From Candidatus Poribacteria bacterium (GTDB lineage: Bacteria > Poribacteria > WGA-4E > WGA-3G): a stretch of 64,000 nucleotides of DNA. The stretch covers positions 3,845,287 to 3,909,286 of the forward strand of contig OZ253447.1 of NCBI GenBank assembly GCA_965261115.1, given 5' to 3'. A model generated the notes under the pieces. The model was not told the DNA's origin. It searched no databases and was given only the letters and a program-made list of their open reading frames with translations. Position 1 is the first letter of the stretch, and every line of letters begins with the position of its first letter. Shown piece after piece: positions 48,831-62,998 of the stretch. Both the position numbers and the translations under genes were made by a program.

Positions 48831-49892
48831 CTACAAGAGGTATTTGATAAGGTGCGTAAGTTTTATACGAAAAACTTGGAACACTTTTATGTCGTTCGCT
48901 TCAGCGTCGCTCACAAAGACGCGTCCGGTTTTTGAGACTGCGACCCCTACGGGTGCTAAGAGCGCTGTGTTACTAAATTCTGTGATGCTCTTGCCATTAG
49001 GTGTGAAGATTTGGATGCGTCGGTTGCCGCTGTCGGTTACATAGACATAATTCCAGTCGTCTAAGGCGATGCACTTCGGTTCTCGGAGTTGTCCAAGTTT
49101 ATCGCCTTCACCCCCCCAAGCACTCATCGGATTGCCGCTGAAGTCGTATTTTTTGATGAGATGGTTCCCAGTGTCAACGACATAGACATTCCCGTGGGTA
49201 TCGACACCGAGGTCTGTCGGATTCCATAGTTGTTCTGTTCCGCTCCCGAAGTTCCCTCTTGCTGTAACTGGGACCCCTGCGACATTGAATTCAATCCAGC
49301 GATGATTGCCTGTGTCTACGATATAGACCTCACCATTCCGTCCGATCCCGATGCCTTCGGGTTGATCAAGCAGGATGTCATCTACATTCTCGGTGAGTGG
49401 GTAGAAGATCCGATCCACAAAATTGCAGTATTGTATCCGATTATTGCCCGTATCTACGACATAGAGGCGGTAACTCCTTTGGAAACTTAAGGCTATATCA
49501 GATGGGTGATCGAACTCGCCTCTCTGCCACCCACGTCCACCGAATTCTGTGATGAAATTTCCGAGGTCGTCAATAACTTGTACCCGATTGTTCCCAGCGT
49601 CGGCGACGTAGATTCTATCTGCTTCATCTATTGTGAGCCCCAAGGGCATCTGAAATTCACCTGCGCCTTGTCCAGCATTGCCGAGTGTTTTGATGTAGTT
49701 GATACCTACGATTAGCGTAGGTTTCCGTTCACGGTTTGATGGGAGAATTTCGACCGGCTGTGCAAGTTCATTTTCGGGCAGGGTGCAACTCAAACAAAGT
49801 GCAAGGAGCAAAAACCAGATTTTTTTATATTTCCTTGCGGTTCGGTTTTTTATATTTCCTTGCGGTTCGGTTAGGTCTGTTTGAGATTTCAA
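48831..49892 (-). CDS. NHL-repeat beta-propeller lipoprotein
   Basis: Six blades with (V/I)YV(A/V)D.GN.R(I/V)Q.. motifs (IYVADAGNNRVQV, LYVVDTGNNRIQY, VYIVDTGNHRWIE, VYVVDTGNHLIKK, VYVTDSGNRRIQI). Lipobox LALCLSC. The TTG start is uncertain; the N-terminal extension contains the tandem dispersed motif. Confidence 0.75.
   Translation of the reverse strand: MKSQTDLTEPQGNIKNRTARKYKKIWFLLLALCLSCTLPENELAQPVEILPSNRERKPTLIVGINYIKTLGNAGQGAGEFQMPLGLTIDEADRIYVADAGNNRVQVIDDLGNFITEFGGRGWQRGEFDHPSDIALSFQRSYRLYVVDTGNNRIQYCNFVDRIFYPLTENVDDILLDQPEGIGIGRNGEVYIVDTGNHRWIEFNVAGVPVTARGNFGSGTEQLWNPTDLGVDTHGNVYVVDTGNHLIKKYDFSGNPMSAWGGEGDKLGQLREPKCIALDDWNYVYVTDSGNRRIQIFTPNGKSITEFSNTALLAPVGVAVSKTGRVFVSDAEANDIKVFQVFRIKLTHLIKYLL
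49821..49871 (+). repeat. dispersed motif copies C1+C2 (tandem, 23-bp period)
   Basis: TTTTTTATATTTCCTTGCGGTTCGGT occurs twice back to back. Both copies contain the identical 14-nt core. Confidence 0.85.
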
Positions 49893-49974
49893 GCGTCTTT
49901 TCCGTTTATCCGCATGCGCCGTTGTTGCATGCTGCGTTTTGTTTTTTCATCGGAAGCCTGCGGGGGCCCCAAGC

Positions 49975-50622
49975 TTAGCCGCGTTGTACCTTAAATTTGA
50001 AGACGAAGGTTGTTTGTTGGTTATTGAAATCGCTTGTGACTCTTGGCACAATGATCCGTAAATTGCTATAATTAATACTCCGTTTGCGGAAATAGAGGAA
50101 GAATCTTGCGTGGTGCTTCGGCATGACCGTGGTTTTTTCGATGTCTGCTCTCGGTAGGACTGCTGGTCCCCCTTGTATTCTGATGGTTTTATCCCATCGG
50201 AACACTTCCGCTGCAAATTCAGGGGGCAGCGTCGGTTTAAAGTTCTTTTTCAAATAAAAGGATTCCTGCGATTTGTCGATCGGTTTCGTAACATTCATGG
50301 TGCCATCAAGCATCTGACAATCTTTCTTTTTAAAGGAGATCCAGTGGTCGGTCCCATTATAGATAAAGATAGCGAATGCATCGACCGCCTTGACATCGTT
50401 GAGCGGTACTGCCATTGCCTTGATGCCGTTTTTGAGGTACCCGACGGTGCCTGTCTGCGGCATAATGTAAGCATCAGGATCAAAGACGGGGACAATGATC
50501 TCTGGTCGGAAGGTGTCTTTTACGAAATCTGACACCTTTGCACAGCTTAACGGAATTAATGCTAAACAGAGGAGTGCTAAAATTTGTAAGAGGGACACTC
50601 GATAATGTATCTCATTTTTCAT
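49975..50622 (-). CDS. hypothetical lipoprotein
   Basis: Signal plus lipobox (LALIPLSC). No recognisable domain. Confidence 0.45.
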   Translation of the reverse strand: MKNEIHYRVSLLQILALLCLALIPLSCAKVSDFVKDTFRPEIIVPVFDPDAYIMPQTGTVGYLKNGIKAMAVPLNDVKAVDAFAIFIYNGTDHWISFKKKDCQMLDGTMNVTKPIDKSQESFYLKKNFKPTLPPEFAAEVFRWDKTIRIQGGPAVLPRADIEKTTVMPKHHARFFLYFRKRSINYSNLRIIVPRVTSDFNNQQTTFVFKFKVQRG

Positions 50623-50852
50623 TTTTTTAAAGTTCCTTTATTGAAGTTATATTGCGTAAAACATGAGAATTTAGTCCGATAGGGAACGAAAGGGAGATCA
50701 TTTGTGTCCTTTTCTCTCCGCCTCAGATCCCGATTTGATTTGAATTCTTACCTCTTACTCGCTATGGGTTGAATAAGAAAGGCACGCATGCTTTTTACCC
50801 AAGCTTCAGGGGCTTCTATTCTGAGCTGATCTAAGAGGCGAAGTTCTTCTTT

Positions 50853-51464
50853 TTAGCCCCAGCGTTCTTCTTGTTCTATTATAGAGCGTAGCAGGTTTCT
50901 TGTTGTTTCAAATGCCTGTTGATTATCAGGACCCGGAAAGAGGAAATACAATGCTGCCGACTTAGCAACCATTTGAATAGCACGCTCAAGTGTTACAATT
51001 CCGCTTCGCTGCATTCGATCACGCTCTACGATGTAACGAACCTGTGGGATGTCTCCGAATTGTTGGAAGAATTGAGCTTCGCGATGTTTTTTGCGTACCG
51101 CTTCGTCTACATCCGCAAAGGCCCAATTTTGGGGAACTTCAAGGTTCCTGAGTTCTTTGACTTCCGCGTCTGTTAACCTGATCCAATCTTCGTCTTTCAA
51201 CTTTTCCCAATCTTCCTCTTTTAAATTTCCCCAGTCTTTGAGCGTTAAGTGTAGCCATTGTTTAGCGTCTTTCAAGTCTATGTCGTCTATGTCTGTCAAT
51301 TGTGGTAATTGATCATCAGATTGTAGGGGGTGTTCATCGAACGTATTATAGTTCGGTTTGATTACTTCTTGCTCGTCTTCGGTGTCTCCACAACCGAAAC
51401 AGATCAGGAGACTGAGGATAGCTGTAAAATAAAAAAAGTTGGAAAGGATAAATCCGTTTTTCAT
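50853..51464 (-). CDS. hypothetical lipoprotein
   Basis: Likely start MKNGFILSNFFYFTAILSLLICFGC (lipobox). Acidic, W-rich repeat region (DWGNLKEEDWEKLKDEDW). No family recognised. Confidence 0.45.
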   Translation of the reverse strand: MKNGFILSNFFYFTAILSLLICFGCGDTEDEQEVIKPNYNTFDEHPLQSDDQLPQLTDIDDIDLKDAKQWLHLTLKDWGNLKEEDWEKLKDEDWIRLTDAEVKELRNLEVPQNWAFADVDEAVRKKHREAQFFQQFGDIPQVRYIVERDRMQRSGIVTLERAIQMVAKSAALYFLFPGPDNQQAFETTRNLLRSIIEQEERWG

Positions 51465-51515
51465 GGTGTGCTCCATTGGTCCAAACAAGTTATGAAATTT
51501 GACAGATTTTATTCC

Positions 51516-51568
51516 AAAACCAACAACTCGTGCCTTAACATTTATAACGGAGTCGAGTTGTTGGTTTT
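51516..51568 (-). terminator. terminator hairpin after the accD-like/galK/glk unit
   Basis: 15-bp perfect arms AAAACCAACAACTCG / CGAGTTGTTGGTTTT with a 23-nt loop. The T-run is contiguous with the stem on either strand. It lies 26 nt downstream of the glk stop. Confidence 0.6.
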
Positions 51569-51593
51569 AATAGCCGATAAACGAGATAACGGT

Positions 51594-52667
51594 TCATTTA
51601 AAAGATCCTTCGAGTGCAAGCATCGCGGCTCCCACAATGCCAGCGTCATTTCCGAGGTGTGCTTTTACGATTTTCATCTGCGACGGGATGTCCATCGCAC
51701 GTTTAGAGAATTCAGCGCGGATCGGTTCAAAGAGCAGTTTCTCACCAGCTTCTGCGATGCCCCCGCCGATGATCGCGATTTGAGGATTGAGAATATGCGC
51801 TATTGAAGTGAGGGCAATGCCTATATACCGTCCCGTTTCAGCAAAAATCTCAGTTGCGAGTTCGTCCCCTGCTTGCGCGGCTTCCGCTATCATCCGCGGC
51901 GTTAATGGCGTTCCGGCGTTTGTTGCGGAGGCTAAAGTAGTGCTGCGTCCAGCTGCTATCTTCTCTTGGATGCGTTCCACGATGTTTTTTGCGCCAGCAT
52001 AAGCCTCAAGACACCCTTGATTGCCGCACCCACAATAACGTCCATTGGGTTCAACGACGGTATGTCCCAATTCGCCCGCAGTGTTCTGACTGCCGTGATA
52101 GACCTCACCATCAATCACTACGCCGCCACCTACACCTGTGCCGAGTGTCAATGCGACAAGATTCTTATATCCGACCCCGGCTCCGTGATGAAGTTCACCT
52201 AAAGTCATTACATTCACATCGTTGTCCATCCCGCTGAGGACAGGCTTGTACTGTTTATTAATATTCCGCGCTGCCACACGTTTTGGGGTGTGTAGTTTTG
52301 ATAGTTCTGTGTTGACATAGGTAACAAGCGGGATGTCGCTCCACCCCGGAAAGTTTGGTGAGAAGTGGACGACCCCTGTTTCGGCGATAATGAGTCCGGG
52401 TGAACCGAGTCCAACCCCAATTTCAAACGCTTCGTCATCGGATCCAGATTCTCTCGCTGCTGTTACATGGATGTCTGCTGTTTCTGCTTTTACAAGCACT
52501 TGTCGGACGGCTTCAGCGATCCGCGCAGCGACTACTTTAGGCCCCCCTGTTTCTACATCTGTAGGGACGACCACGCGACAAGAAACATCACCTTCTGATG
52601 AGACCAAGCCGGCTTTAATATCCGTTCCGCCGAGGTCAACGCCGATACTATGTTTCGTTGTTTCCAT
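51594..52667 (-). CDS. glk: ROK-family glucokinase
   Basis: IGVDLGGTDIKAGLV (ATP site), LGTGVGGGVV, and the ROK zinc motif CGCGNQGCLEAYAG. The start was chosen at METTKHSIGVDLGG. Confidence 0.8.
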   Translation of the reverse strand: METTKHSIGVDLGGTDIKAGLVSSEGDVSCRVVVPTDVETGGPKVVAARIAEAVRQVLVKAETADIHVTAARESGSDDEAFEIGVGLGSPGLIIAETGVVHFSPNFPGWSDIPLVTYVNTELSKLHTPKRVAARNINKQYKPVLSGMDNDVNVMTLGELHHGAGVGYKNLVALTLGTGVGGGVVIDGEVYHGSQNTAGELGHTVVEPNGRYCGCGNQGCLEAYAGAKNIVERIQEKIAAGRSTTLASATNAGTPLTPRMIAEAAQAGDELATEIFAETGRYIGIALTSIAHILNPQIAIIGGGIAEAGEKLLFEPIRAEFSKRAMDIPSQMKIVKAHLGNDAGIVGAAMLALEGSFK

Positions 52668-52675
52668 AGCGTTTA

Positions 52676-53956
52676 TCAAGATAATTCCGTGCTCCAAAAA
52701 ACTTGTGCGCCGTTCCCGACATGACAGCGGTAAATTTCAGGTTCAATGCCGATCTGTTTTTGATATTCCTTCCGCACACGGGTTTGGAACGTTTCTATAG
52801 CGTCTTTATGAACGATGTTAACGGTGCAGCCGCCAAAACCTGCCCCTGTCATGCGACTTCCAATCACCCCCGTAATGCTACGTGCGATGTCGGTAAGTAG
52901 GTCTAACTCCTTGCAGCTGACTTCATAATCGTCGCGCAGTCCGTTATGTGACGCGTTCATTAGATTACCGAATTGTATGAGTGCTTCGTCTGTTTTTTCT
53001 GTTATCTGTTGATTACGCGCCTTGAGGACAGAAACTGCCTCTAATACACGCGTGTTTTCTTCAATCACATACCGACATCTCTTTTGTGTTAGTGCCGGTA
53101 ATTCTTCTTCGTGTTTTTTGAAATCCGTTAAGGCGACATCACGAAGTGAAGAGATACCGGGTATCCACTGGCTGAGGATATCTACGCCTCTTTCACATTC
53201 CGCGCGGCGTTTGTTATATTCTGAGGCAGCGAGTTCCCGTTTTACCTTTGTGTTACAAATCGTAATATAGTGGCCTGCTAAATTAAGCGGAACATGCTCA
53301 TATTCAAGCGAACGACAGTCAAGGAACAGTCCGTGGTTTTCCTTTCCTAACAGCGAGATCGTCTGGTCCATGATACCACAGTTAACTCCGGCAAATTCGT
53401 GTTCGACGCGTTGGCATAATGCTGCGAGTTCTTTCTTATGATTTTCAGGGATGGGAAACCCGTCCCCTACACGTTCGGAGCCGGCAGTTAAAAAAGCGAG
53501 TGTGGCGGAGACTGAAAGTGCGGCTGAAGAACTTAACCCTGCGCCAATTGGGATGTCGCCGGTGATAACGGCATCTATCCCCGCTACTGTTCTCCCTGAT
53601 GCTTGGAGAAGGGATGCAACACCGATAAGGTAATGGCTCCACGCGGGTGCTTGTTGTGGGATAGACTGGAGCGCGTCAAGGTTGAATTCCCAAGAATCGT
53701 TCACATCTGAGGCGTGTAGTGTGACACGTCGGTCAGTTCGCTGACGCGCGGCGATGTTAATATATTTATCAATGGCGACTGGAAACACATAACCGTCGTT
53801 GTAATCTGTATGCTCACCGATGAGATTCACTCTGCCAGGGGCTGATGCGATGAATGTAGGCGGGCTGCCGAAGGTCTCCTCAAACTTCTGTGTAATAGGG
53901 GAGATTCGCTTGGGTTGTGGGTCGAGAGTTTGGTTGTTTGAAGCGTCTTTTTTCAT
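52676..53956 (-). CDS. galK: galactokinase
   Basis: Galactokinase signature GRVNLIGEHTDYNDG, GHMP motif PIGAGLSSSAA, and the C-terminal GAGFGGCTV. Confidence 0.87.
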   Translation of the reverse strand: MKKDASNNQTLDPQPKRISPITQKFEETFGSPPTFIASAPGRVNLIGEHTDYNDGYVFPVAIDKYINIAARQRTDRRVTLHASDVNDSWEFNLDALQSIPQQAPAWSHYLIGVASLLQASGRTVAGIDAVITGDIPIGAGLSSSAALSVSATLAFLTAGSERVGDGFPIPENHKKELAALCQRVEHEFAGVNCGIMDQTISLLGKENHGLFLDCRSLEYEHVPLNLAGHYITICNTKVKRELAASEYNKRRAECERGVDILSQWIPGISSLRDVALTDFKKHEEELPALTQKRCRYVIEENTRVLEAVSVLKARNQQITEKTDEALIQFGNLMNASHNGLRDDYEVSCKELDLLTDIARSITGVIGSRMTGAGFGGCTVNIVHKDAIETFQTRVRKEYQKQIGIEPEIYRCHVGNGAQVFWSTELS

Positions 53957-54678
53957 TTTTCGTTAAAAAAATTCAGAAGTCGTCCTAACATGTCAGGAAG
54001 TTCTTCGCGCGAGATATAGCAATCAACACTTATGTCAGGCTCTCTCTGGGGTTTTGATGTTGGGAGCTGCGTCAGGAGTTGTTCTTCTGGGGCATGCAGT
54101 GCGGGTTGTAAATTGGGTTGTACCGATTTTTGGGAAGCCGATGTCCTTTCCGCGATAACCAATTCGCCGACGGGGAGGTGCGTGGCAAGTGGGTGTATGT
54201 CTGTTTCAGTCAGAACGGTGATATGGGGAAGTGCTGCGTCTGCTAATCGTTGCAGTTGCATTGTCAAATAGGTGGTTTCCGTCAAAGTCTCTTCGGATCC
54301 CTCCGGTTGGCATGCAACAATTGTAATTAGGGGCATCCGTTTTTGTAAAACGGTTTCAATGGCTGAAAGAAGAAGGGACACATCAATCTCAACAGGAATC
54401 ACATCCATATCAGCGATGAAAAGAGAGGCGGGGTACCCTGAAATCGTTCCTTCGGCGATAATACCAGCGGCGTTAGTCGAGCTGATTTTTGCTGTTGAAG
54501 GATTGTCAAGTAGGTGCTCAAGACGTTTTTCGGCAAGTAAAGGGAACAAGGCACCACAGTGTGAGCAGGTATAAAGGTTCCGTTCAAGTTCACCTCTGAA
54601 AACGAATTCGTTGCACCCAGTGCATTTATACCATAAATTGATGCTTTGTGCTGTGTCAGTAGAGATACGCGCTTCCAT
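53953..54678 (-). CDS. AccD-like protein (acetyl-CoA carboxylase carboxyltransferase beta homolog) lacking catalytic glycine motifs
   Basis: The N-terminal zinc ribbon WYKCTGCNEFVFRGELERNLYTCSHCG...AEKRLEHLLD aligns with AccD. The downstream region is collinear, but FMGGSMG reads VIPVEID, SGGARMQE reads CQPEGSEE, and TMGGVSASFA reads DIHPLATHLP. Its stop overlaps the galK start by 4 nt. Confidence 0.7.
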   Translation of the reverse strand: MEARISTDTAQSINLWYKCTGCNEFVFRGELERNLYTCSHCGALFPLLAEKRLEHLLDNPSTAKISSTNAAGIIAEGTISGYPASLFIADMDVIPVEIDVSLLLSAIETVLQKRMPLITIVACQPEGSEETLTETTYLTMQLQRLADAALPHITVLTETDIHPLATHLPVGELVIAERTSASQKSVQPNLQPALHAPEEQLLTQLPTSKPQREPDISVDCYISREELPDMLGRLLNFFNEK

Positions 54679-54690
54679 ATTTGTATAGTT

Positions 54691-54836
54691 GTTAGTTAAC
54701 AGTTATAAGTTTTTAGTTAAGAGGGTTCTGATTATTCAAGTTTCTTTGGTAACCGTCAGTACTTCAATTGAGTAGAGACTTCTTGGAATAACGATCAAAC
54801 ATCAAAAACCAAACTTATAACTTATAACTTATAACT
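54691..54836. repeat. inverted AGTTATA/ACTTATA heptamer arrays in the intergenic region
   Basis: Left: GTTAGTTAACAGTTATAAGTT (54691-54714). Right: (ACTTATA)x3.5 at 54812-54836. Confidence 0.8.
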
Positions 54837-54850
54837 ATTCCCGTTTGAAC

Positions 54851-55210
54851 CTATAGGAAATGACCTATAGCCTCTGCTTCTGTATTGTAACAGTCAAAGA
54901 TTGTCATCAGTTTTGCCATAACAATAAGGCTTCTGATGTTGCCTCCAAGATTGAGAAGTACGACACTTCCTTCATTCCTGCGAATGGTGGTATAAGAAGC
55001 GACAAGCACGCCTAAACCGGAACTATCCATCATCTGGACCCGCTCCAGGTTTAAAATTAAGTTAAGTTTTTCGTCCTGTTCTGCTTCGTTATTTACTGTT
55101 TCAATCTGTTGGTCAATGATGGATTTAAGGGCTAAAGCATCTGCCCCAATAACTTTACCCTCAATATCTAAAATTGTAATACTGCCTTTATGTCGAACAT
55201 TAACTTGCAT
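54851..55210 (-). CDS. STAS-domain anti-sigma-factor antagonist (SpoIIAA/RsbV-like)
   Basis: About 119 aa with the conserved phosphorylatable-serine motif MMDSSGLGVLV. Confidence 0.8.
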   Translation of the reverse strand: MQVNVRHKGSITILDIEGKVIGADALALKSIIDQQIETVNNEAEQDEKLNLILNLERVQMMDSSGLGVLVASYTTIRRNEGSVVLLNLGGNIRSLIVMAKLMTIFDCYNTEAEAIGHFL

Positions 55211-55421
55211 AGTAATTCCTTGAGATATAAAATAGTCCCAAACCTAAAGTGGCAATTGCCGCATGCGATGCCCTATCCATCCGCTTTGATGAGGTCCGAT
55301 GCTTTATGCGCTGCGTCCTATAGACGGAAAGGCTTGGATGTATTGGATGAAATAGGTTTTAAGACAGACATCTTTCTGGTAGGCTTGGTTGGTATTAGAT
55401 CTACAAAAATATGAATAAATA

Positions 55422-56168
55422 TCATTGCGCCTCCAGTTCTGCCATGTATTTAACCATTTTGATGATGGTGCCATTGGCTTCATAGGTTACAGCGTCCATA
55501 CAGGCTTCCATGAGAAATATGCCTCTGCCACTGCTTTTGAGCAAATTCGCTGGATCAAGAGGGTCAGCAACTTCTTGGCGTGTGAATCCATCGCCTTGGT
55601 CCTCAATAACAATAGTTAATTTATCTTCATCAAGAATAAACTGGATTGTTGCCCTTTTGTGTGGATCCTCTTTATTTCCATGTTTAATAGCGTTTGTACC
55701 CGCTTCAATGGCGGCCAGGTTAATCTGCTCTTGCGTTTCCTCGGAGAAATTCGTCCCTTTCAATATCTCGGTAACGACAACGTCGAGCAGGTAAACGTGT
55801 TGCATTGAGCTTGGGAGAGAAAGCATAATAACCCGTGCGGTTTCGGTTTCTTTATGTTTGAATCCTTCGCTTTCTTCCAGGGTGTTAATGGTAAGTTCGT
55901 TCTCAGTCAGTATTAACTGAAAAGTTATTTGTTTGGTCGGATCCTCTCTATTGCCGTTTTCAATAGCGTTTGTACCCGCTTCAATGGCAGCAAGGTTAAT
56001 CCGCTCTTGGGTGTCTTCATCGAAATCCGTTTCGTTGAGGATTTCGGTGACAACAGCCTTGAGCAGGTAAACATGTTGCATTGAGCTTGGGAGAGAAAGC
56101 GTAATAGCTTGTTCAGTCCTCTCGCCCACGTTTGAAGCTCCTTCTCTGTGCACTTGGATATTTTCCAA
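55422..56168 (-). CDS. RsbW/SpoIIAB-like serine kinase (anti-sigma factor type) with a duplicated, degenerate N-terminal half
   Basis: Second half: N-box EAGTNAIKHG, G1 DQGDGF, G2 GRGIFL. The first half repeats ~95 aa (LSLPSSMQHVYLL..VVTEIL...EETQE.INLAAIEAGTNAIENG) but lacks G1/G2. Confidence 0.75.
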   Translation of the reverse strand: MENIQVHREGASNVGERTEQAITLSLPSSMQHVYLLKAVVTEILNETDFDEDTQERINLAAIEAGTNAIENGNREDPTKQITFQLILTENELTINTLEESEGFKHKETETARVIMLSLPSSMQHVYLLDVVVTEILKGTNFSEETQEQINLAAIEAGTNAIKHGNKEDPHKRATIQFILDEDKLTIVIEDQGDGFTRQEVADPLDPANLLKSSGRGIFLMEACMDAVTYEANGTIIKMVKYMAELEAQ

Positions 56169-56255
56169 GGGTGTCTATAAGATGGACTTGAGAATAGTCC
56201 GATCTTTCGTTATTTTGTTAGGCGGGCAGTGCCTACACGGCATGCCCATCGTGTT

Positions 56256-57470
56256 TTAGACATTGCGTTTTATAACAATTAAAGCCCGATCATCATGGGT
56301 TTGTGTGCTTCCACTGAACCGTGCTAAATCTTCAACAATTGCTTCGCATAGTGCTGATGCTGATAGTGAAGCATTTTTAGAGAGGCAAGCAGCGAGCCTA
56401 TCCCCACCATAGAACATGTTGGTCAGTATTGCGTCTTCATGCCCATTATCCGATTCTGAAGCCGTGCTATCTCCAGTTTCTGTTTCAGTGATACCATCGG
56501 TATAGAAAGCGATGATATCGCCGGGGGCCAGGTGGCAGGTGCCGGTTGTGAAAGTTGCTTCGTCAAATGCCCCTATTAACATACCGCCGGTTTTTAAGAC
56601 GGTTATGTTGCTGTCCTGAGTCCAGTGAAATGGATAGCAGTGTCCACCGTTTGAATATGTAAAGGTTGAAGCGGTTGTGTCTAATATCCCGTAGACCATT
56701 GTTGCGAATAGATCCGCTTCGGTGTCTCGGACGACTAAGTCGTTAATCCGTTTAAGGATTGAAGCGGGTGCCTCTTCCTCATGACAGAGGAGTCGGAGTG
56801 CTGTCCGGATCATCACCATTAGGAGTGCTGCTGGAATACCACTCCCCTTTACATCACCGAGAACGATCCCAATCTGTGTTTCGGTCAACGGTATGAAATC
56901 GTAGAAGTCGCCAGAGACGGATGTAGAACTTTGTAACAGGGTTGCAATGTCAAATCCATCAATATTGGGTGCCTGTTCTGGTAATAATTTTTTCTGAATA
57001 GCAGCGGCGGCTTGAAGATGTCCTGCGAGTTGTTCCAACCCCTTTTCGCTAAACCCTTCGCCCATTGCTCGCATAAGGGGGTTGATGTATTTAATGGGTC
57101 GCGTTCTGCCGAGGACGGCTTCAATGCGTGCGGTTACTTCGCGTAAATCAAAGGGTTTTGTAATGTAATCATCAGCACCAGTATCCAACCCACGGACTTT
57201 ATCCTCCGTCTGCCCGCGCGCCGTAACGAGAATGATTGGAACGTTTTTTGTCTCCTGTATATCTTTTAGTTCTTCTATGACCTGGAACCCATTTTTATGT
57301 GGCATCATCACATCGAGAAGTATCAGATCTGGTGGATCTGTGGAGGCACTTTGTACTGCGCTTTCCCCATCACTTGCGGTCTGTACATCGTAGCCCTCTG
57401 GTTCAAGGTTCATCTTTAGTAGTTCAAGTATGTCCAGATCGTCATCGACGACTAAGATCGTTTCAGCCAT
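56256..57470 (-). CDS. response regulator receiver fused to PP2C/SpoIIE phosphatase (RsbU-like)
   Basis: REC domain: ILVVDDDLDILELL...DLILLDVMMPHKNGF...PIILVTAR. PP2C domain: SGDFYDF, GDVKGSGIPAAL, YTDGITE, DDRALIV. The start was chosen at MAETILVVDD. Confidence 0.85.
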   Translation of the reverse strand: MAETILVVDDDLDILELLKMNLEPEGYDVQTASDGESAVQSASTDPPDLILLDVMMPHKNGFQVIEELKDIQETKNVPIILVTARGQTEDKVRGLDTGADDYITKPFDLREVTARIEAVLGRTRPIKYINPLMRAMGEGFSEKGLEQLAGHLQAAAAIQKKLLPEQAPNIDGFDIATLLQSSTSVSGDFYDFIPLTETQIGIVLGDVKGSGIPAALLMVMIRTALRLLCHEEEAPASILKRINDLVVRDTEADLFATMVYGILDTTASTFTYSNGGHCYPFHWTQDSNITVLKTGGMLIGAFDEATFTTGTCHLAPGDIIAFYTDGITETETGDSTASESDNGHEDAILTNMFYGGDRLAACLSKNASLSASALCEAIVEDLARFSGSTQTHDDRALIVIKRNV

Positions 57471-57515
57471 ATTTTTAGATTCTTTAGATATTGTGTTTCT
57501 GCTGCGACTCACTGC

Positions 57516-57542
57516 ACCGAACCGCAAGGCACTTTAGAAAGA
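57516..57542 (-). repeat. dispersed motif copy D (minus orientation)
   Basis: The reverse complement reads TCTTTCTAAAGTGCCTTGCGGTTCGGT. The TAA is the stop codon of the histidine kinase. It lies between the HK and the response-regulator start. Confidence 0.8.
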
Positions 57543-59930
57543 CGGAATAAAAAATTGGAAGTTGCACCCTTGTCCGTTATCTCCGGTGTCCACCCATAGT
57601 TTTCCACCGTGTGCTTCGACGATTCCAGATGCGATTGAGAGTCCTAAGCCGCTTCCGCCCTGTTGCCGCGTCTGTACATTTCCGAGTTGTCTGAATTTAT
57701 CGAAAACCTTTTCTCTCTCTTCAGGCGGGATACCTGGTCCCGTATCGATCACTTCAACGTGAAAACCGTCGCGTTCCCTCCCGTTCTGGGAAGCGTTTGA
57801 TATTCTAACGGTTACCTTTCCGTTATCAGGGGTAAATTTAATAGCGTTTCCAATCAGGTTGATAAAAATTTGTCCAATTCGGTCGGCGTCGGCAATCATG
57901 AGCGGTAAATTCGGTGGTGTCTCCAAGAGTAGAGAGATAGATTTCTCATCTGCTTGTGGACGGAGTTCTTCGATCCGGCGTTTTGCGATCCAATCTATCT
58001 GTACTTGTTCCTGCTTCATCTCAATCCGTCCGGATTCGATTCGGGAAACGTCAAGCAGATCGTTGATAAGGACAGCAAGTCGCTTTGATTGACGATGTGC
58101 CCGGCTCAAGCTTTCGTGCTGTTTCTGATTAATTTGACCGGTTTTCCCCTCAAGGATCAGTGAAATAAAGCCGATGATGGAAGTTAGAGGTGTCCGTAAT
58201 TCATGCGACACAAGAGACACAAACTCCGATTTCATTTGTTCTATTTCGTGTTCATTCGTGATGTCATCAAAGACATAAACTGTACCAGCGACGTTGTTGC
58301 TCTCATCAGGAAACTGACTGGCTATAATGCGGAGGACTCGAGCCTGATCACCGTTGTGTTGATGTCCATTGACACTCATTTCCGCGATCATCGTTTGGTG
58401 CTGTGTCATCTCACGTTGCGAGGCAGACAGAATTTTCATATCAACCGTTTGTGTTTCTTGCATTTGGGGTTCTTCGGTTGATTCTGATGCTTTTGTCCAG
58501 CGGATTGTACCGGTTTCTGTGTCAATTGTGATATAGTTTTCGTAACCGGTGGTTTCTCCAAGGTTAAGGAGTCGTTCAGCCACAGGATTGACGTACAGCA
58601 CATGTCCGGTGGGTTCAACAACAATCAGCCCTTCACCGAGGTTATCTACGATGGCGGTAAGTTTTCTCTCCTCTCGCGTGAGTTTGTCAACTGCGGTTTT
58701 CAGGTTTCGGCGCATCTCGTTGAATGCTTCAGCGAGGGTGCCGACTTCGTCATCGCTGTCAACGACGATTTCGCTATCAAATTCACCTTGTCCGATACTA
58801 CGTGCCGCTTGTGCCACTTTCAATATAGGTGTTGCGATTCGTTGTGCTGCCCACCATGCAATAAGTACAACGATACAACTTGACACAATGGTAACATAAA
58901 AAATATAGTTGTTTAATTTGGCGACCCCAACATAAGCCGAAGCAGTTGGTCGTGAAATAAAGACGATCCAATTGCTGAAGTTTTGCCGAACCTTCCACGG
59001 TTCGTCAGATGAGCGTTGGGTTCGCGCCCAGCCGTACACACGCGGTTCGTTGAAGCTATCCGTTTCACCTTCTGCTTCATAATCGTAGTATTTTCCTTGA
59101 TCCGCCTTTTTTGCCTCGATAATTGCTTCCTCTGCTGCATTGTTCATCTCCATGTAGGTATCTACTTGATACCCACTTTTCGATGAAGCCGCAATGATTT
59201 TACCGGATTCATCTGTTAAGATAGTGTGTGTTTTCTCCGATTCGAGGCTTGACTCCACAATACGTGTGAGTTCAGGGAGTACCAGTACAATCCGCAACAC
59301 GCCCACCGTGTTATTTTCTGCATTTGCTGCCGAGGCTTCGGATGTCGTACGTATTGGAAGTGCGATTGGTAGCAGATGTACTTTCCGTCTTTTGTCATAA
59401 CTGATGTCTTCAGCAAATGGGTAACCTATACCGTTGTTGTATGCGCTCTGCCACCAGGTTGTGTTATTTACCTGATGTGGGATGCCTCTTTGGATGGAGT
59501 AATCCAGTTGCTGGTTGTTTGAACGGATCACATATCCGGATGCATTGGTAATAGTTACCACAGTTTTGTCACCGGCATAAGTTTCAAGTAGCCGTATACT
59601 ATCCACGAGCTGCGTCCAAACTTTAAAAAATACGATTTCTTCTCCATTAGCAGTGTTGGAACGTACAACTGCTGTTCGGATATTTGGGAGTTCAGCTTGG
59701 ATTTTTTCGATTTTCTCGGAAATGGCATTGTCCACGCGGGCGAGTTTTTCTTGCGCCAGAAGTACATGGTTTTCGCCGACAGTTCCTTTTAAAGCGTTTT
59801 CACCCAACACCTTGATCGCCAGTGAAATGGCGAACAGTGGCATGAGTGCGACTAACAGAAAAAGCACCACCTGTTGACCGCGTAGCCCAACCTTAAACCG
59901 AAAACGCTCTGTACGATTTTTGTCTTTCAT
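57534..59930 (-). CDS. sensor histidine kinase (two TM, large periplasmic domain, HAMP, PAS, HisKA, HATPase)
   Basis: H-box SHELRTPLTSIIGF, N-box NLIGNAIKFT, G1 DTGPGI, G2 GGSGLGLSI. The HAMP-like segment follows the second TM (IVVLIAWWAAQRIATPILKV). Confidence 0.85.
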   Translation of the reverse strand: MKDKNRTERFRFKVGLRGQQVVLFLLVALMPLFAISLAIKVLGENALKGTVGENHVLLAQEKLARVDNAISEKIEKIQAELPNIRTAVVRSNTANGEEIVFFKVWTQLVDSIRLLETYAGDKTVVTITNASGYVIRSNNQQLDYSIQRGIPHQVNNTTWWQSAYNNGIGYPFAEDISYDKRRKVHLLPIALPIRTTSEASAANAENNTVGVLRIVLVLPELTRIVESSLESEKTHTILTDESGKIIAASSKSGYQVDTYMEMNNAAEEAIIEAKKADQGKYYDYEAEGETDSFNEPRVYGWARTQRSSDEPWKVRQNFSNWIVFISRPTASAYVGVAKLNNYIFYVTIVSSCIVVLIAWWAAQRIATPILKVAQAARSIGQGEFDSEIVVDSDDEVGTLAEAFNEMRRNLKTAVDKLTREERKLTAIVDNLGEGLIVVEPTGHVLYVNPVAERLLNLGETTGYENYITIDTETGTIRWTKASESTEEPQMQETQTVDMKILSASQREMTQHQTMIAEMSVNGHQHNGDQARVLRIIASQFPDESNNVAGTVYVFDDITNEHEIEQMKSEFVSLVSHELRTPLTSIIGFISLILEGKTGQINQKQHESLSRAHRQSKRLAVLINDLLDVSRIESGRIEMKQEQVQIDWIAKRRIEELRPQADEKSISLLLETPPNLPLMIADADRIGQIFINLIGNAIKFTPDNGKVTVRISNASQNGRERDGFHVEVIDTGPGIPPEEREKVFDKFRQLGNVQTRQQGGSGLGLSIASGIVEAHGGKLWVDTGDNGQGCNFQFFIPSF

Positions 59931-59936
59931 GTGCTA

Positions 59937-60045
59937 AAGTTATAAGTTATAGGTTGTAAGTTATAAACTACGATGCTGTGAATACCACAACAAAACTACC
60001 TGCCACAAGAAGTTAACTGTTAACTTATAACCTATAACCGTTAAC
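59937..60045. repeat. inverted AGTTATA/ACTTATA heptamer arrays (second intergenic region)
   Basis: Left: AGTTATA-AGTTATA-GGTTGTA-AGTTATA (59937-59968). Right: AGTTAACTGTTAACTTATAACCTATAACCGTTAAC (60011-60045). Confidence 0.8.
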
Positions 60046-60062
60046 TCTCTATGGTTTTTCTC

Positions 60063-60401
60063 TTACATGAAAGCGGCGCGCGCGGCCTCCTCCGTATCAT
60101 AAATTTCGATAACGGTTGCGAGCTGCGTTACCTCCAAGACTTCTTGAACTGCTTTCTGTGGGTTAAGCAAAACGAGTTTCCCACCAGATTCCTGACAGCA
60201 TTTTAAGGTGGTTACAATCGCGCCTAACGCGCTGCTGTCGATTAGCGAAACGTTCGTTAGATCAACAACTAATTTATCGCGCCCCGTTTGAAGTTGCAGT
60301 TCCATTTCCTTGCGAAAAGTATCGGTGGCGTTTCCAAGGATCTTACCTTCAATATGAAGGGTGGAGATATTGCCCGTCTCAATTGTTGTCTCAAAATTCA
60401 T
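60063..60401 (-). CDS. STAS-domain anti-sigma-factor antagonist (second copy)
   Basis: MNFETTIE...LIDSSALGAIV carries the conserved serine. About 112 aa from the internal ATG. Confidence 0.8.
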   Translation of the reverse strand: MNFETTIETGNISTLHIEGKILGNATDTFRKEMELQLQTGRDKLVVDLTNVSLIDSSALGAIVTTLKCCQESGGKLVLLNPQKAVQEVLEVTQLATVIEIYDTEEAARAAFM

Positions 60402-60441
60402 AAGACTTATCCTTAGTATTTCTTTTGTCGGCTTTGTTCTT

Positions 60442-61119
60442 TTATTCGGTTGTGTTAACACGGTGCATCACAACATAACCTCGGTTGAGTTTTGAATTGA
60501 TAAAGACAGTTTCAACGCATCCACCGAGCGCGCTCAAGTGTGTGGTGCTGTTGTTAATTTCACTATTTATTATTTTTTCTCCAGACTTGTAAGCTACCCA
60601 TTTCCCCGTTGATTTTAGGAAGGGTAGGCAGTACACTGCTGAGTCTTGGATACTTGCGACGTAGCGAGTGAAAACCCAATCATAGGCACCAACGCGATCG
60701 GGGTCTTGGGCACAAACTTCCGCACGTTCAGTCAGTACTTCAGTGTTGACTGCTTGATGAAGGTCGAGTTGCAAGATCAGAAATTTTAGGAAACTACTTT
60801 TCTTTTTTGATGCTTCAACAAGTGTTAGCCGAATATCTGGTCTGTAAATTTTCAGTGCGATTCCAGGGAACCCTGCACCTGTTCCGACATCAATCACGGC
60901 ATCACCGCTTTTAAGTGAAATATGTTCTAAAACACTCAACGAATCGAGAAAATGCTTATGAATAATCTCATCTTCATCTGTAATTGCTGTCAGGTTGATA
61001 TGTTTATTCCACCGGAGCAGTTCGGTGCGATATTGATCAAACTGTGCTACCTGCTGTGTCGTTAAAGGAAATCCGTACTGATCAAACGTCTTTTTTAAAA
61101 CGTGCATGTCCGTTGCCAA
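60442..61119 (-). CDS. rsmG: 16S rRNA (guanine527-N7)-methyltransferase
   Basis: LLRWNKHINLTAI, HFLDSL and the SAM motif VIDVGTGAGFPGIALKI. It sits immediately downstream of mnmG, the classic gidA-gidB arrangement. Confidence 0.85.
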   Translation of the reverse strand: MATDMHVLKKTFDQYGFPLTTQQVAQFDQYRTELLRWNKHINLTAITDEDEIIHKHFLDSLSVLEHISLKSGDAVIDVGTGAGFPGIALKIYRPDIRLTLVEASKKKSSFLKFLILQLDLHQAVNTEVLTERAEVCAQDPDRVGAYDWVFTRYVASIQDSAVYCLPFLKSTGKWVAYKSGEKIINSEINNSTTHLSALGGCVETVFINSKLNRGYVVMHRVNTTE

Positions 61120-61120
61120 G

Positions 61121-62998
61121 TTATCGTGCGCTTTGTTGATGAAGCATAACCGTCAAGATCGAAATATCGGCTGGCGAAACACCCGGCAGTCGTGACGCTT
61201 GCCCGATAGAGGCGGGACGAATCTTTGCGAGTTTCTCTCGTGCCTCTGTCTTTAGTCCGTGAACGTTGGCATAGTCAAATGTATCTGGAATTTGAAAATT
61301 TTCCAATTTCTTGAATTGGTGAATTTGTCGCTGTTGTCGTTGGATATATCCGTCGTATTTAATCTGAATTTCTACCTGTTCTGTCACAGCTGGCGACAGC
61401 ATCTCGGTAGACGGTGCGATTTGTGTTATGTGTTCATAACAGAGTTCTGGACGTTTCAAGAGGTCCGCCAAGGATGTGGGTTGCTTTAGTTCACCTGTCT
61501 TAAGGATATTTGCCAAATTGTCCACGGTTTCTGCGGTTGGTTTAAGAATTGTCTCCTGTAACCGTTTCAGTTCTGTTTGGATGTCTGCTGCTTTCTGTTG
61601 GAACTGGTGGTATCTGTCGTCATCAACCAACCCGATTTGCCTACCGATTTCGGTGAGTCGCAAATCGGCGTTGTCCTCTCGTAATGCTAATCTGTATTCA
61701 GCGCGTGATGTGAACATACGGTAAGGTTCACGGATGTCCAACGTAACCAGATCGTCAATAAGCACGCCTATGTATGCTTGTGCCCTATCCAGAACGAGGG
61801 GTTGTTCGCCTTTAACCTTTAAAGCGGCATTGACGCCAGCGATAAGCCCTTGCGCAGCGGCTTCCTCATACCCTGTGGTGCCGTTGAGTTGTCCGGCGAA
61901 ATAGAGTCCGGGGACCTGTTTTGTTTCAAGTGTTGGTTGTAATTGCGTTGCTGGTGCGAAATCGTATTCTACGGCGTATCCGAAGCGCATGATCTCAGCG
62001 TTCTCTAACCCTTTGATGCTATGCACCATCTCTACCTGTACATCTTCAGGGAGACTTGCAGAGATGCCGTTCAAGTAAATTTCGTCGGTGTCTCGTCCCT
62101 CTGGTTCTACGAAGACTTGATGTTCTGTTTTTTCTGAAAAGCGGACGACCTTATCCTCAATTGATGGACAATAACGGGGCCCGATGCCGACGATGCGCCC
62201 GCTATACATTGCTGACCTGTGAAGGTTCTCGCGAATGACATCGTGTGTTTTTTCATTTGTGTAGGTTAGATAACACGGTAGTTGGGGTTGTGTGATCCGT
62301 TCGGTTGAAAATGAGAAAGGCAGCGGATTTTCATCACCGGGTTGGATTTCCATCTGGTTGAAGTCAATTGTATGGGCATTGACGCGTGGTGGTGTACCGG
62401 TTTTAAGCCTACCGATCTCGAATCCAAGGCTTAAAAAACTGTCTGAGAGTTTCTCAGCGGAGGATTCACCTGCTCTGCCTGCGCTGTATGAGACATCACC
62501 GATATGGATAATGCCTTTCAAGAAAGTCCCCGTTGTCAGAATTACAGCATCTCCGAAATAGGCGGTTTGTGTCTGACTCAGGATTCCGATGCACTTTCCA
62601 TTTTCTACGAGGAGTTCTTCAACCAACACCTGTTTGATGTCAAGTTTTTGTTGTGCCTCTAAGACGCGTTTCATTTCATCTTGGTAGGCCTTTTTATCGG
62701 CTTGTGCGCGGCTGGAACGGACCGCGGGTCCCTTTTTGGTATTCAAGCGTCGAAATTGGATCCCGGTTTTGTCAATGTTTTTTGCCATTTCGCCGCCGAG
62801 CGCGTCTATCTCTTTGACAAGATGCCCCTTGGCGAGTCCACCGATAGCAGGGTTGCAGGACATCTTAGCGATCGTGTCCAGGTTAATGGTGACGATGAGG
62901 GTTTCGCAGCCCATTCGCGCCGCGGCGAGTGCGGCTTCGCAGCCTGCGTGCCCCGCACCGACAACAATGATGTCATAATGTTTTTGATAGGTATTCAT
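61121..62998 (-). CDS. mnmG: tRNA uridine-5-carboxymethylaminomethyl modification enzyme MnmG (GidA)
   Basis: FAD motif YDIIVVGAGHAGCEAALAAARMG, plus SCNPAIGG.AKGHLV.EIDALGG, GPRYCPSIEDK and FAGQ.NGTTGYEEAAAQG. Confidence 0.9.
   Translation of the reverse strand: MNTYQKHYDIIVVGAGHAGCEAALAAARMGCETLIVTINLDTIAKMSCNPAIGGLAKGHLVKEIDALGGEMAKNIDKTGIQFRRLNTKKGPAVRSSRAQADKKAYQDEMKRVLEAQQKLDIKQVLVEELLVENGKCIGILSQTQTAYFGDAVILTTGTFLKGIIHIGDVSYSAGRAGESSAEKLSDSFLSLGFEIGRLKTGTPPRVNAHTIDFNQMEIQPGDENPLPFSFSTERITQPQLPCYLTYTNEKTHDVIRENLHRSAMYSGRIVGIGPRYCPSIEDKVVRFSEKTEHQVFVEPEGRDTDEIYLNGISASLPEDVQVEMVHSIKGLENAEIMRFGYAVEYDFAPATQLQPTLETKQVPGLYFAGQLNGTTGYEEAAAQGLIAGVNAALKVKGEQPLVLDRAQAYIGVLIDDLVTLDIREPYRMFTSRAEYRLALREDNADLRLTEIGRQIGLVDDDRYHQFQQKAADIQTELKRLQETILKPTAETVDNLANILKTGELKQPTSLADLLKRPELCYEHITQIAPSTEMLSPAVTEQVEIQIKYDGYIQRQQRQIHQFKKLENFQIPDTFDYANVHGLKTEAREKLAKIRPASIGQASRLPGVSPADISILTVMLHQQSAR

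Follow-up and report, generated by a model that had tools for sequence, protein, structure and literature searches.

The subject of this article is a gene in a 64,000-nucleotide stretch of the genome of a Candidatus Poribacteria bacterium (GenBank assembly GCA_965261115.1, contig OZ253447.1, positions 3,845,287 to 3,909,286), the whole of which is referred to as the window. The gene, accDL, encodes a homolog of AccD, the carboxyltransferase beta subunit of acetyl-CoA carboxylase (ACCase). This protein, termed pseudo-AccD, is probably a noncatalytic AccD paralog that acts as the output or target of a partner switch, encoded as the last gene of a signaling cassette that is conserved across the phylum Poribacteria, in the slot of a sigma factor. 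Genes for a STAS protein and an RsbW-like kinase always accompany accDL, and in most cases a dCache sensor kinase and a phosphatase in which a response-regulator receiver (REC) is joined to PP2C (REC-PP2C) are encoded there too. It belongs with this partner-switching module because the module is invariant, one lineage carries a fusion of STAS with pseudo-AccD, and the link to the galactokinase gene galK is loose; the sugar kinases are variable, though recurrent, downstream neighbors.

A degenerate AccD homolog with an intact zinc ribbon

The features of the protein in the window are as follows.

53953..54678, minus strand: pseudo-AccD (accDL), an open reading frame (ORF) of 241 amino acids with an ATG start, an intact zinc ribbon and a degenerate carboxyltransferase (crotonase-fold) domain
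54556..54633, minus strand: AccD-type zinc ribbon (Pfam PF17848), residues 16-41, with C19, C22, C38 and C41 (WxKC...ELERN...C..C)
54073..54108, minus strand: clade-invariant motif QPALHAPEEQLL, residues 191-202, aligning with AccD LPxGFQxxEFLL

The zinc ribbon, Zn_ribbon_ACC (PF17848), is the sole Pfam domain in pseudo-AccD, covering residues 16-41 with an E value of 9e-8 and 32.6 bits against a cutoff of 24.5, and W16 and the four zinc-ribbon cysteines are invariant in 95/95 orthologs. For the carboxyltransferase domain Carboxyl_trans (PF01039), no Pfam match was reported at E<=1, and the NCBIfam accD equivalog TIGR00515 scores 49.1 bits, below its curated cutoff of 317.45. Searched with phmmer against PDB sequences, the protein matches E. 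coli AccD (2f9y_B and 8uxz_D, E ~4e-11), strongly over the ribbon and weakly over a second stretch across the catalytic domain; residues 114-281 of PDB chain 9m70_A pair with residues 76-240, that is, up to the C-terminus. In the hhalign comparison of the family profile (n=47) with a canonical AccD profile (n=10), residues 13-241 are collinear with AccD template positions 22-279, with a probability of 99.8% and an E value of 2e-29. The AF2 structural model has a mean pLDDT of 67.7 and a pTM of 0.67 and is only moderately confident, with a confident core and pLDDT <50 at residues 1-16, 27-34 and 180-212. Its top Foldseek matches in the PDB are the AccD beta subunits 8uz2_H, 2f9i_B and 2f9y_B (E 7e-9 to 6e-8), after which MdcD and then the beta subunits of PCC and MCC are ranked. 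An earlier reading of the window, made without database searches and referred to here as the sequence-only reading, had described a protein that keeps the AccD zinc ribbon and is collinear with AccD to the C-terminus, and these comparisons bear out both points.

The loss of the catalytic site can be followed through the individual motifs of AccD. In the profile-profile alignment, the position of FMGGSMG (FxGGSMG) reads VIPVEID, that of SGGARMQE reads CQ-PEGSEE, and that of PTTGGVxAS, which belongs to the oxyanion hole, reads ETDIHPLAT, all of them in register, while a variable linker occupies the place of the GFAGPRVIEQT stretch. The replacement of the glycine-rich motifs had been noticed in the sequence-only reading and is upheld. 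The LPxGFQxxEFLL motif is not lost; it is remodeled to LQPALHAPEEQLL, which is invariant across the sponge-associated clade. For reference, degeneration was scored at 48 near-invariant columns in 19 canonical AccDs within a 114-sequence MAFFT alignment. Pseudo-AccD keeps 5/5 of these columns in the zinc-ribbon region and 9/43 in the catalytic domain, 7/43 of the latter are retained in at least 80% of the 95 family members, and the GG pairs of the catalytic motifs are retained by 0/95 orthologs. The possibility that the catalytic motifs are present in shifted positions was ruled out, since both the hhalign profile alignment and the MAFFT alignment display in-register substitution. Carboxyltransferase activity, which had already been judged unlikely from the window, appears very unlikely, the catalytic motifs being gone and the fold and the zinc ribbon kept.

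In comparison with AccD (TIGR00515; PDB 2F9Y_B, 2F9I_B, 8UZ2), pseudo-AccD shares the N-terminal four-cysteine zinc ribbon, the crotonase-like fold and the full-length collinearity, and it retains LPxITVLT, GD/E..AE and the C-terminal D...R..L helix. In contrast, it has no FxGGSMG, SGGARMQEG, PTTGGVxAS or GFAGPRVIEQT, lacks about 40 AccD residues that follow the ribbon, falls far under the curated cutoff, and is encoded in a signaling cassette, whereas AccD is a housekeeping gene. Judged by sequence and predicted fold, pseudo-AccD is an AccD homolog that should not carry the AccD annotation, because it fails the curated threshold and the catalytic features. Pipelines at JGI give the name "acetyl-CoA carboxylase beta subunit" to the family members P0083, P0102, P0306, P0329, P0396-P0398 and P0413-P0415, which NCBI names hypothetical. 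These false names are a likely way for metabolic reconstructions of Poribacteria to count a dead protein as AccD.

Such names, together with the collinearity over the full length and the conserved ribbon, would suit a highly divergent protein that is still the real, active carboxyltransferase beta subunit of the organism, whose chromosome measures 6.67 Mb. That interpretation is nonetheless highly improbable, given that 34 of the 43 near-invariant catalytic-domain residues are gone, including both GG motifs, GGARMQE and GFAGPRV, that the missing residues constitute a deletion between ribbon and core, that the TIGR00515 score is so low (49 bits against 317), and that accDL evolves faster than any other gene of its block.

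The family was delimited by several searches. A homology search of 5.8 billion proteins returned 178 matches, the best 120 of which are all about 240 residues long and 57-100% identical, with the named ones called "hypothetical protein, Candidatus Poribacteria". A scan of species-representative genomes yielded 141 matches, of which the best 80 belong without exception to Poribacteria, at 42-91% identity. Remoter degenerate AccD-like proteins, at 22-50% identity, were recovered by a profile search (1.84 billion representatives) and a second homology search, and the majority of the named ones are labeled Poribacteria by NCBI. As far as these searches show, the pseudo-AccD family seems to be limited to Candidatus Poribacteria, an uncultivated phylum of sponge symbionts. 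One cluster that NCBI labels Deltaproteobacteria was considered as a sign that the family reaches other phyla and was set aside; its label is doubtful, and its locus is syntenic with Poribacteria, in the order GidB, STAS, histidine kinase (HK), PP2C, kinase, STAS and accDL.

Pseudo-AccD is a maintained protein under purifying selection and not a decaying pseudogene, because the ORF is intact in 95/95 orthologs and pairwise comparison with eight relatives gives dN/dS values of 0.15-0.31. Neighboring genes have values of 0.04-0.22. The relaxed evolution of accDL relative to its neighbors (dN/dS up to 0.31; 42-47% identity, against about 60% for galK) might be expected of a nonfunctional remnant of an accD duplication heading for loss, but this possibility is effectively refuted by the conservation data: the ORF is intact in 95/95 loci, even in those with no more than about 22-25% identity, the dN/dS values are far below 1, and clade-invariant motifs are present.

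Degenerate AccD-like proteins with a zinc ribbon and without the GG motifs were also observed outside the accDL family (P0148, P0142, P0168 and P0188). P0148 (L095 8001-8924) adjoins UbiB/ABC1 kinase and P450 genes and is without the STAS or kinase neighbors of accDL; given this unrelated context, AccD activity may have been lost on more than one occasion. Another protein of 296 amino acids, P0134, contains the AccD N-terminus and zinc ribbon twice, flanking a truncated catalytic domain, and is probably an assembly or gene-call artifact.

The partner-switching cassette and its link to pseudo-AccD

On the minus strand of the window, the genes are arranged in the order GidA, GidB, STAS1, sensor kinase, REC-PP2C, RsbW-like kinase, STAS2, pseudo-AccD, galK, ROK kinase, two hypotheticals and NHL. 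The part of this series that precedes pseudo-AccD comprises the following features.

60063..60461, minus strand: STAS1, the second STAS protein, heading the cassette, motif LIDSSALG
57534..59930, minus strand: sensor histidine kinase with dCache_1 (under the Pfam cutoff), HAMP, PAS, HisKA and HATPase_c
56256..57527, minus strand: response-regulator receiver fused to a PP2C (SpoIIE) phosphatase (PF07228, E 5e-49)
55422..56168, minus strand: RsbW/SpoIIAB-like serine kinase (HATPase_c_2), internally duplicated (PF13581, E 1.5e-37)
54851..55210, minus strand: STAS2, single-domain and anti-sigma-antagonist-like, with a DSSG phospho-serine motif, MMDSSGLG (PF01740, E 2e-17)
54679..54850, minus strand: spacer of 172 nt between STAS2 and pseudo-AccD, without a convincing promoter, terminator or RNA family

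With a single-domain STAS protein carrying a phosphorylatable serine, an RsbW-like kinase and a PP2C phosphatase, the genes around pseudo-AccD correspond to a partner-switching module as defined at the level of sequence. No sigma factor gene is present in the cassette. The RsbW-like kinase of the window has 248 amino acids and two HATPase_c_2 stretches, of which copy 1 is without the G1/G2 ATP-binding boxes and copy 2 has the N-box, DxGxG and GxG; in relatives, it consists of one 142-aa domain (L001, L003) or takes a 224-aa form (L002). In a promoter and terminator scan of positions 51000-56500, the counts were not above those of shuffled sequence, and none of the spacers matched an RNA family when 49000-61500 was scanned against Rfam at E<=1.

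In a tblastn survey, HK, REC-PP2C, HATPase_c_2, STAS and accDL were found in all 80-odd loci of sponge Poribacteria with enough flank. Because such a uniform block cannot tell which neighbors matter, more distant lineages were examined. Two loci (L084, L085) contain the same cassette and pseudo-AccD, followed directly by the hypothetical and NHL genes, with galK and ROK absent, and in two others (L093, L094), the cassette and pseudo-AccD are followed by a peptidase M24. A MalK-like ATPase and galK come after pseudo-AccD in L096, where the order begins with kinase and STAS, while the cassette and pseudo-AccD of L091 and L092 are followed by a fusion of an HD domain with galactose-1-phosphate uridylyltransferase (HD-GalT) and, further on, by galK. 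In its minimal form (L087, L090), the locus consists of ParA, ParB, STAS, HATPase_c_2 and pseudo-AccD, and the kinase gene and accDL overlap by their stop and start in L087 and are 8 nt apart in L090. In most lineages, the gene immediately upstream of pseudo-AccD is STAS2; the spacer between them measures 8-453 nt across 85 loci and contains a gene in 0/85. In one lineage, STAS and pseudo-AccD are fused in frame into a protein of 378 amino acids that retains the DSSG serine and is preceded by the kinase gene. Three assemblies contain this fusion, and in two cases the contigs carrying it measure 6.27 and 6.35 Mb.

The block from RecR/GidA/GidB to NHL is collinear across the phylum, and the adjacency could accordingly be viewed as inherited origin-proximal synteny, with pseudo-AccD independent of the switch and acting, for example, as a free-standing regulator of ACCase or a nucleic-acid binder. 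This explanation has little probability in view of how the locus varies. The kinase/STAS-accDL junction outlasts the gain and loss of ParAB, HK, PP2C, galK and ROK; it is the junction of STAS with accDL that is interrupted in 0/85 loci, while that of accDL with galK is interrupted in 11; and the in-frame STAS::accDL fusion and the overlap of the kinase stop with the accDL start in L087 speak against it as well.

Sugar kinases and other genes downstream

The genes that follow pseudo-AccD in the window are listed below.

52676..53956, minus strand: galactokinase galK, its start overlapping the pseudo-AccD stop (ATGA); a variable downstream neighbor
51594..52667, minus strand: ROK-family glucokinase (glk), its ATG 8 nt past the galK stop
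50853-51488, minus strand: 211-aa ORF with no Pfam match, between the ROK kinase and the 215-aa hypothetical
49975-50622, minus strand: 215-aa hypothetical with a lipoprotein-like N-terminus and no Pfam match
48831-49892, minus strand: NHL-repeat beta-propeller

The sequence-only reading correctly described the arrangement of the window itself, in which the stop of pseudo-AccD and the start of galK overlap as ATGA at 53953-53956 and the ATG of the ROK gene is located 8 nt after galK. Its further proposal, that the protein had been recruited to a sugar-kinase operon beside a partner-switching module, was not supported as it stood by the comparison of loci, where the overlap occurs in 2/86 and galK is missing next to accDL in five lineages. 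The median gap between accDL and galK is 98 nt, and the gap exceeds 500 nt in 11 loci. When the co-occurrence of accDL with galK was surveyed, 11/86 junctions were interrupted, and galK and ROK were absent from the neighborhood of accDL in L084, L085, L087, L090 and L093. The overlap of accDL with galK-glk in the window genome is a local arrangement.

The inserts between accDL and galK in the 11 interrupted loci measure 1.1-4.4 kb and are of several kinds. The junction in L009 (9055-10469), L012 (8770-10360), L015 (8770-9660, the methyltransferase alone) and L024 (8786-10371) holds a DNA methyltransferase of 296 aa with an SPPY motif, and in L009, L012 and L024 it is followed by an ORF of 173-230 aa, with which it likely forms a restriction-modification pair. 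The junction in L066 and L077 is filled by leucine-rich-repeat proteins of 884-1107 aa. At L001 10780-13613 (= L052), an IS605 TnpB (OrfB_IS605 / Cas12f-like TNB) splits galK into two ORFs and leaves pseudo-AccD intact.

These data bear on the idea that pseudo-AccD serves galK-glk exclusively as a zinc-ribbon regulator or scaffold, exerting, for instance, translational or protein-level control of galactose and glucose phosphorylation. In addition to the stop/start overlap in the window, galK-ROK lies downstream of accDL in all sponge-clade loci, and Leloir genes are found downstream again in the form of HD-GalT with galK (L091/L092) and of the MalK-like ATPase with galK (L096). A dedicated role of this kind is still unlikely, considering the rarity of the overlap, the 11 loci with inserts of kilobase length, the TnpB that disrupts galK while accDL stays intact, and the five lineages in which neither galK nor ROK is near accDL. 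At L091 8843-10510, the product directly downstream of pseudo-AccD is a 555-aa fusion of HD_4 (HD phosphohydrolase) and galactose-1-phosphate uridylyltransferase.

Beyond the sugar kinases, the 215-aa hypothetical and the NHL protein come after the cassette in nearly all lineages, and in L084 the start of the former overlaps the stop of pseudo-AccD; the unit may include these two proteins as well. The 211-aa ORF was found in only 5 surveyed loci (L004, L008, L010, L020 and L024) and either was inserted recently or evolves fast.

Proposed mechanism, related systems and significance

If pseudo-AccD is the output of the partner switch, signal flow through the cassette might proceed as follows. 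The dCache sensor kinase would regulate the REC-PP2C phosphatase, which in turn would dephosphorylate the STAS protein; the unphosphorylated STAS protein and the RsbW-like kinase would then swap partners, and pseudo-AccD would be released or engaged as a result. The gene order of STAS, kinase and pseudo-AccD suggests sequestration by the kinase, by analogy with SigB or SigF, and the STAS::accDL fusion suggests direct contact with STAS, as proposed for SypA-type systems (PMC8256260). What would follow from release is more speculative. Freed pseudo-AccD might join AccA in the role of a dead beta subunit, thereby throttling malonyl-CoA synthesis, and the retention of the ribbon and the fold core is consistent with AccA pairing into a dead carboxyltransferase; alternatively, its zinc ribbon might bind nucleic acid. 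In the most specific version, a periplasmic dCache sensor would free a sequestered dead beta subunit that captures AccA or acc mRNAs, tuning malonyl-CoA as well as fatty-acid and polyketide synthesis at the post-translational level, and this version is put forward as a doubtful one. To our knowledge, the role of a sequestered partner-switching output has so far been filled almost only by sigma factors.

Several points weigh against placing pseudo-AccD at the output of the switch. The evidence for the link consists of gene order and one fusion, and the fusion is limited to a single species-level lineage, in which the copies are 99% identical. The origin-proximal block (RecR, M28, GidA, GidB ... 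NHL) is syntenic phylum-wide, for which reason the adjacency may in part reflect inherited gene order and not function. The presence of galK near accDL in three divergent lineages (the window clade, L091/L092 and L096) makes a looser physiological tie of pseudo-AccD to galactose or sugar use possible. Lastly, the decoy idea presupposes a canonical AccA/AccD pair in Poribacteria.

The proposed role of pseudo-AccD can be compared with several known systems. With RsbV-RsbW-SigB and SpoIIAA-SpoIIAB-SigF, the cassette shares a STAS protein with the DSSG serine and an RsbW-like HATPase_c_2 kinase, and with the two-component-fed variants of the RsbY/HsbR type, it shares a PP2C phosphatase (REC-PP2C) fed by a histidine kinase. 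The minimal accDL loci reproduce the rsbV-rsbW-sigB order of STAS, kinase and third gene, including the stop/start overlap in L087; the differences are that the third gene encodes a dead AccD paralog, a candidate target by gene order, instead of a sigma factor, and that most accDL lineages have two STAS genes. Several partner-switching systems are known whose non-sigma targets are unknown (PMC8256260). Like the accDL cassette, SypA/SypE, BtrUVW, RbaVW and HmpUVW (PMC8256260) combine STAS, kinase and phosphatase in loci that lack a cognate sigma factor, but their target is unknown, whereas the accDL cassette encodes a candidate output that is fused to STAS in one lineage.

As regards ACCase, plants inhibit the enzyme through paralogs of its subunits that are dead, the BADC proteins (10.1101/634550, PMC12706156). 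Pseudo-AccD resembles them as a dead ACCase-subunit paralog that could replace the active subunit, and in being a paralog of a catalytic subunit without the catalytic residues, it has the character of a decoy pseudo-subunit. The two differ in origin, BADC being a plant protein from the biotin carboxyl carrier BCCP (biotin-less) and pseudo-AccD a bacterial one from the beta-carboxyltransferase, and for the latter ACCase inhibition is hypothesis only. The nucleic-acid alternative has its counterpart in the E. coli carboxyltransferase, which binds nucleic acid via the AccD zinc finger (PMC2831308), in agreement with the background on which the sequence-only reading had relied. The E. coli translational-repression model is contested, judging by the title of a paper cited in the literature, "Evidence against translational repression...".

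A literature search combining partner switching with acetyl-CoA carboxylase found no paper connecting the two. What appears to be new is the candidate output of the partner-switching system, together with a candidate pseudoenzyme from an ACCase subunit. Many modules of STAS, RsbW-like kinase and PP2C are without a known target, and the accDL cassette encodes a candidate of the non-sigma type; with the candidate target in the operon and a STAS fusion at hand, the question can be tested directly with few recombinant proteins. In pseudo-AccD, bacteria would have a pseudoenzyme that descends from an ACCase subunit. Should it prove to be a decoy, it would provide a new post-translational control point at the committed step of fatty-acid synthesis, and if a sensor-controlled, sequestered output of this kind does operate, carbohydrate sensing would be linked to lipid synthesis in Poribacteria.

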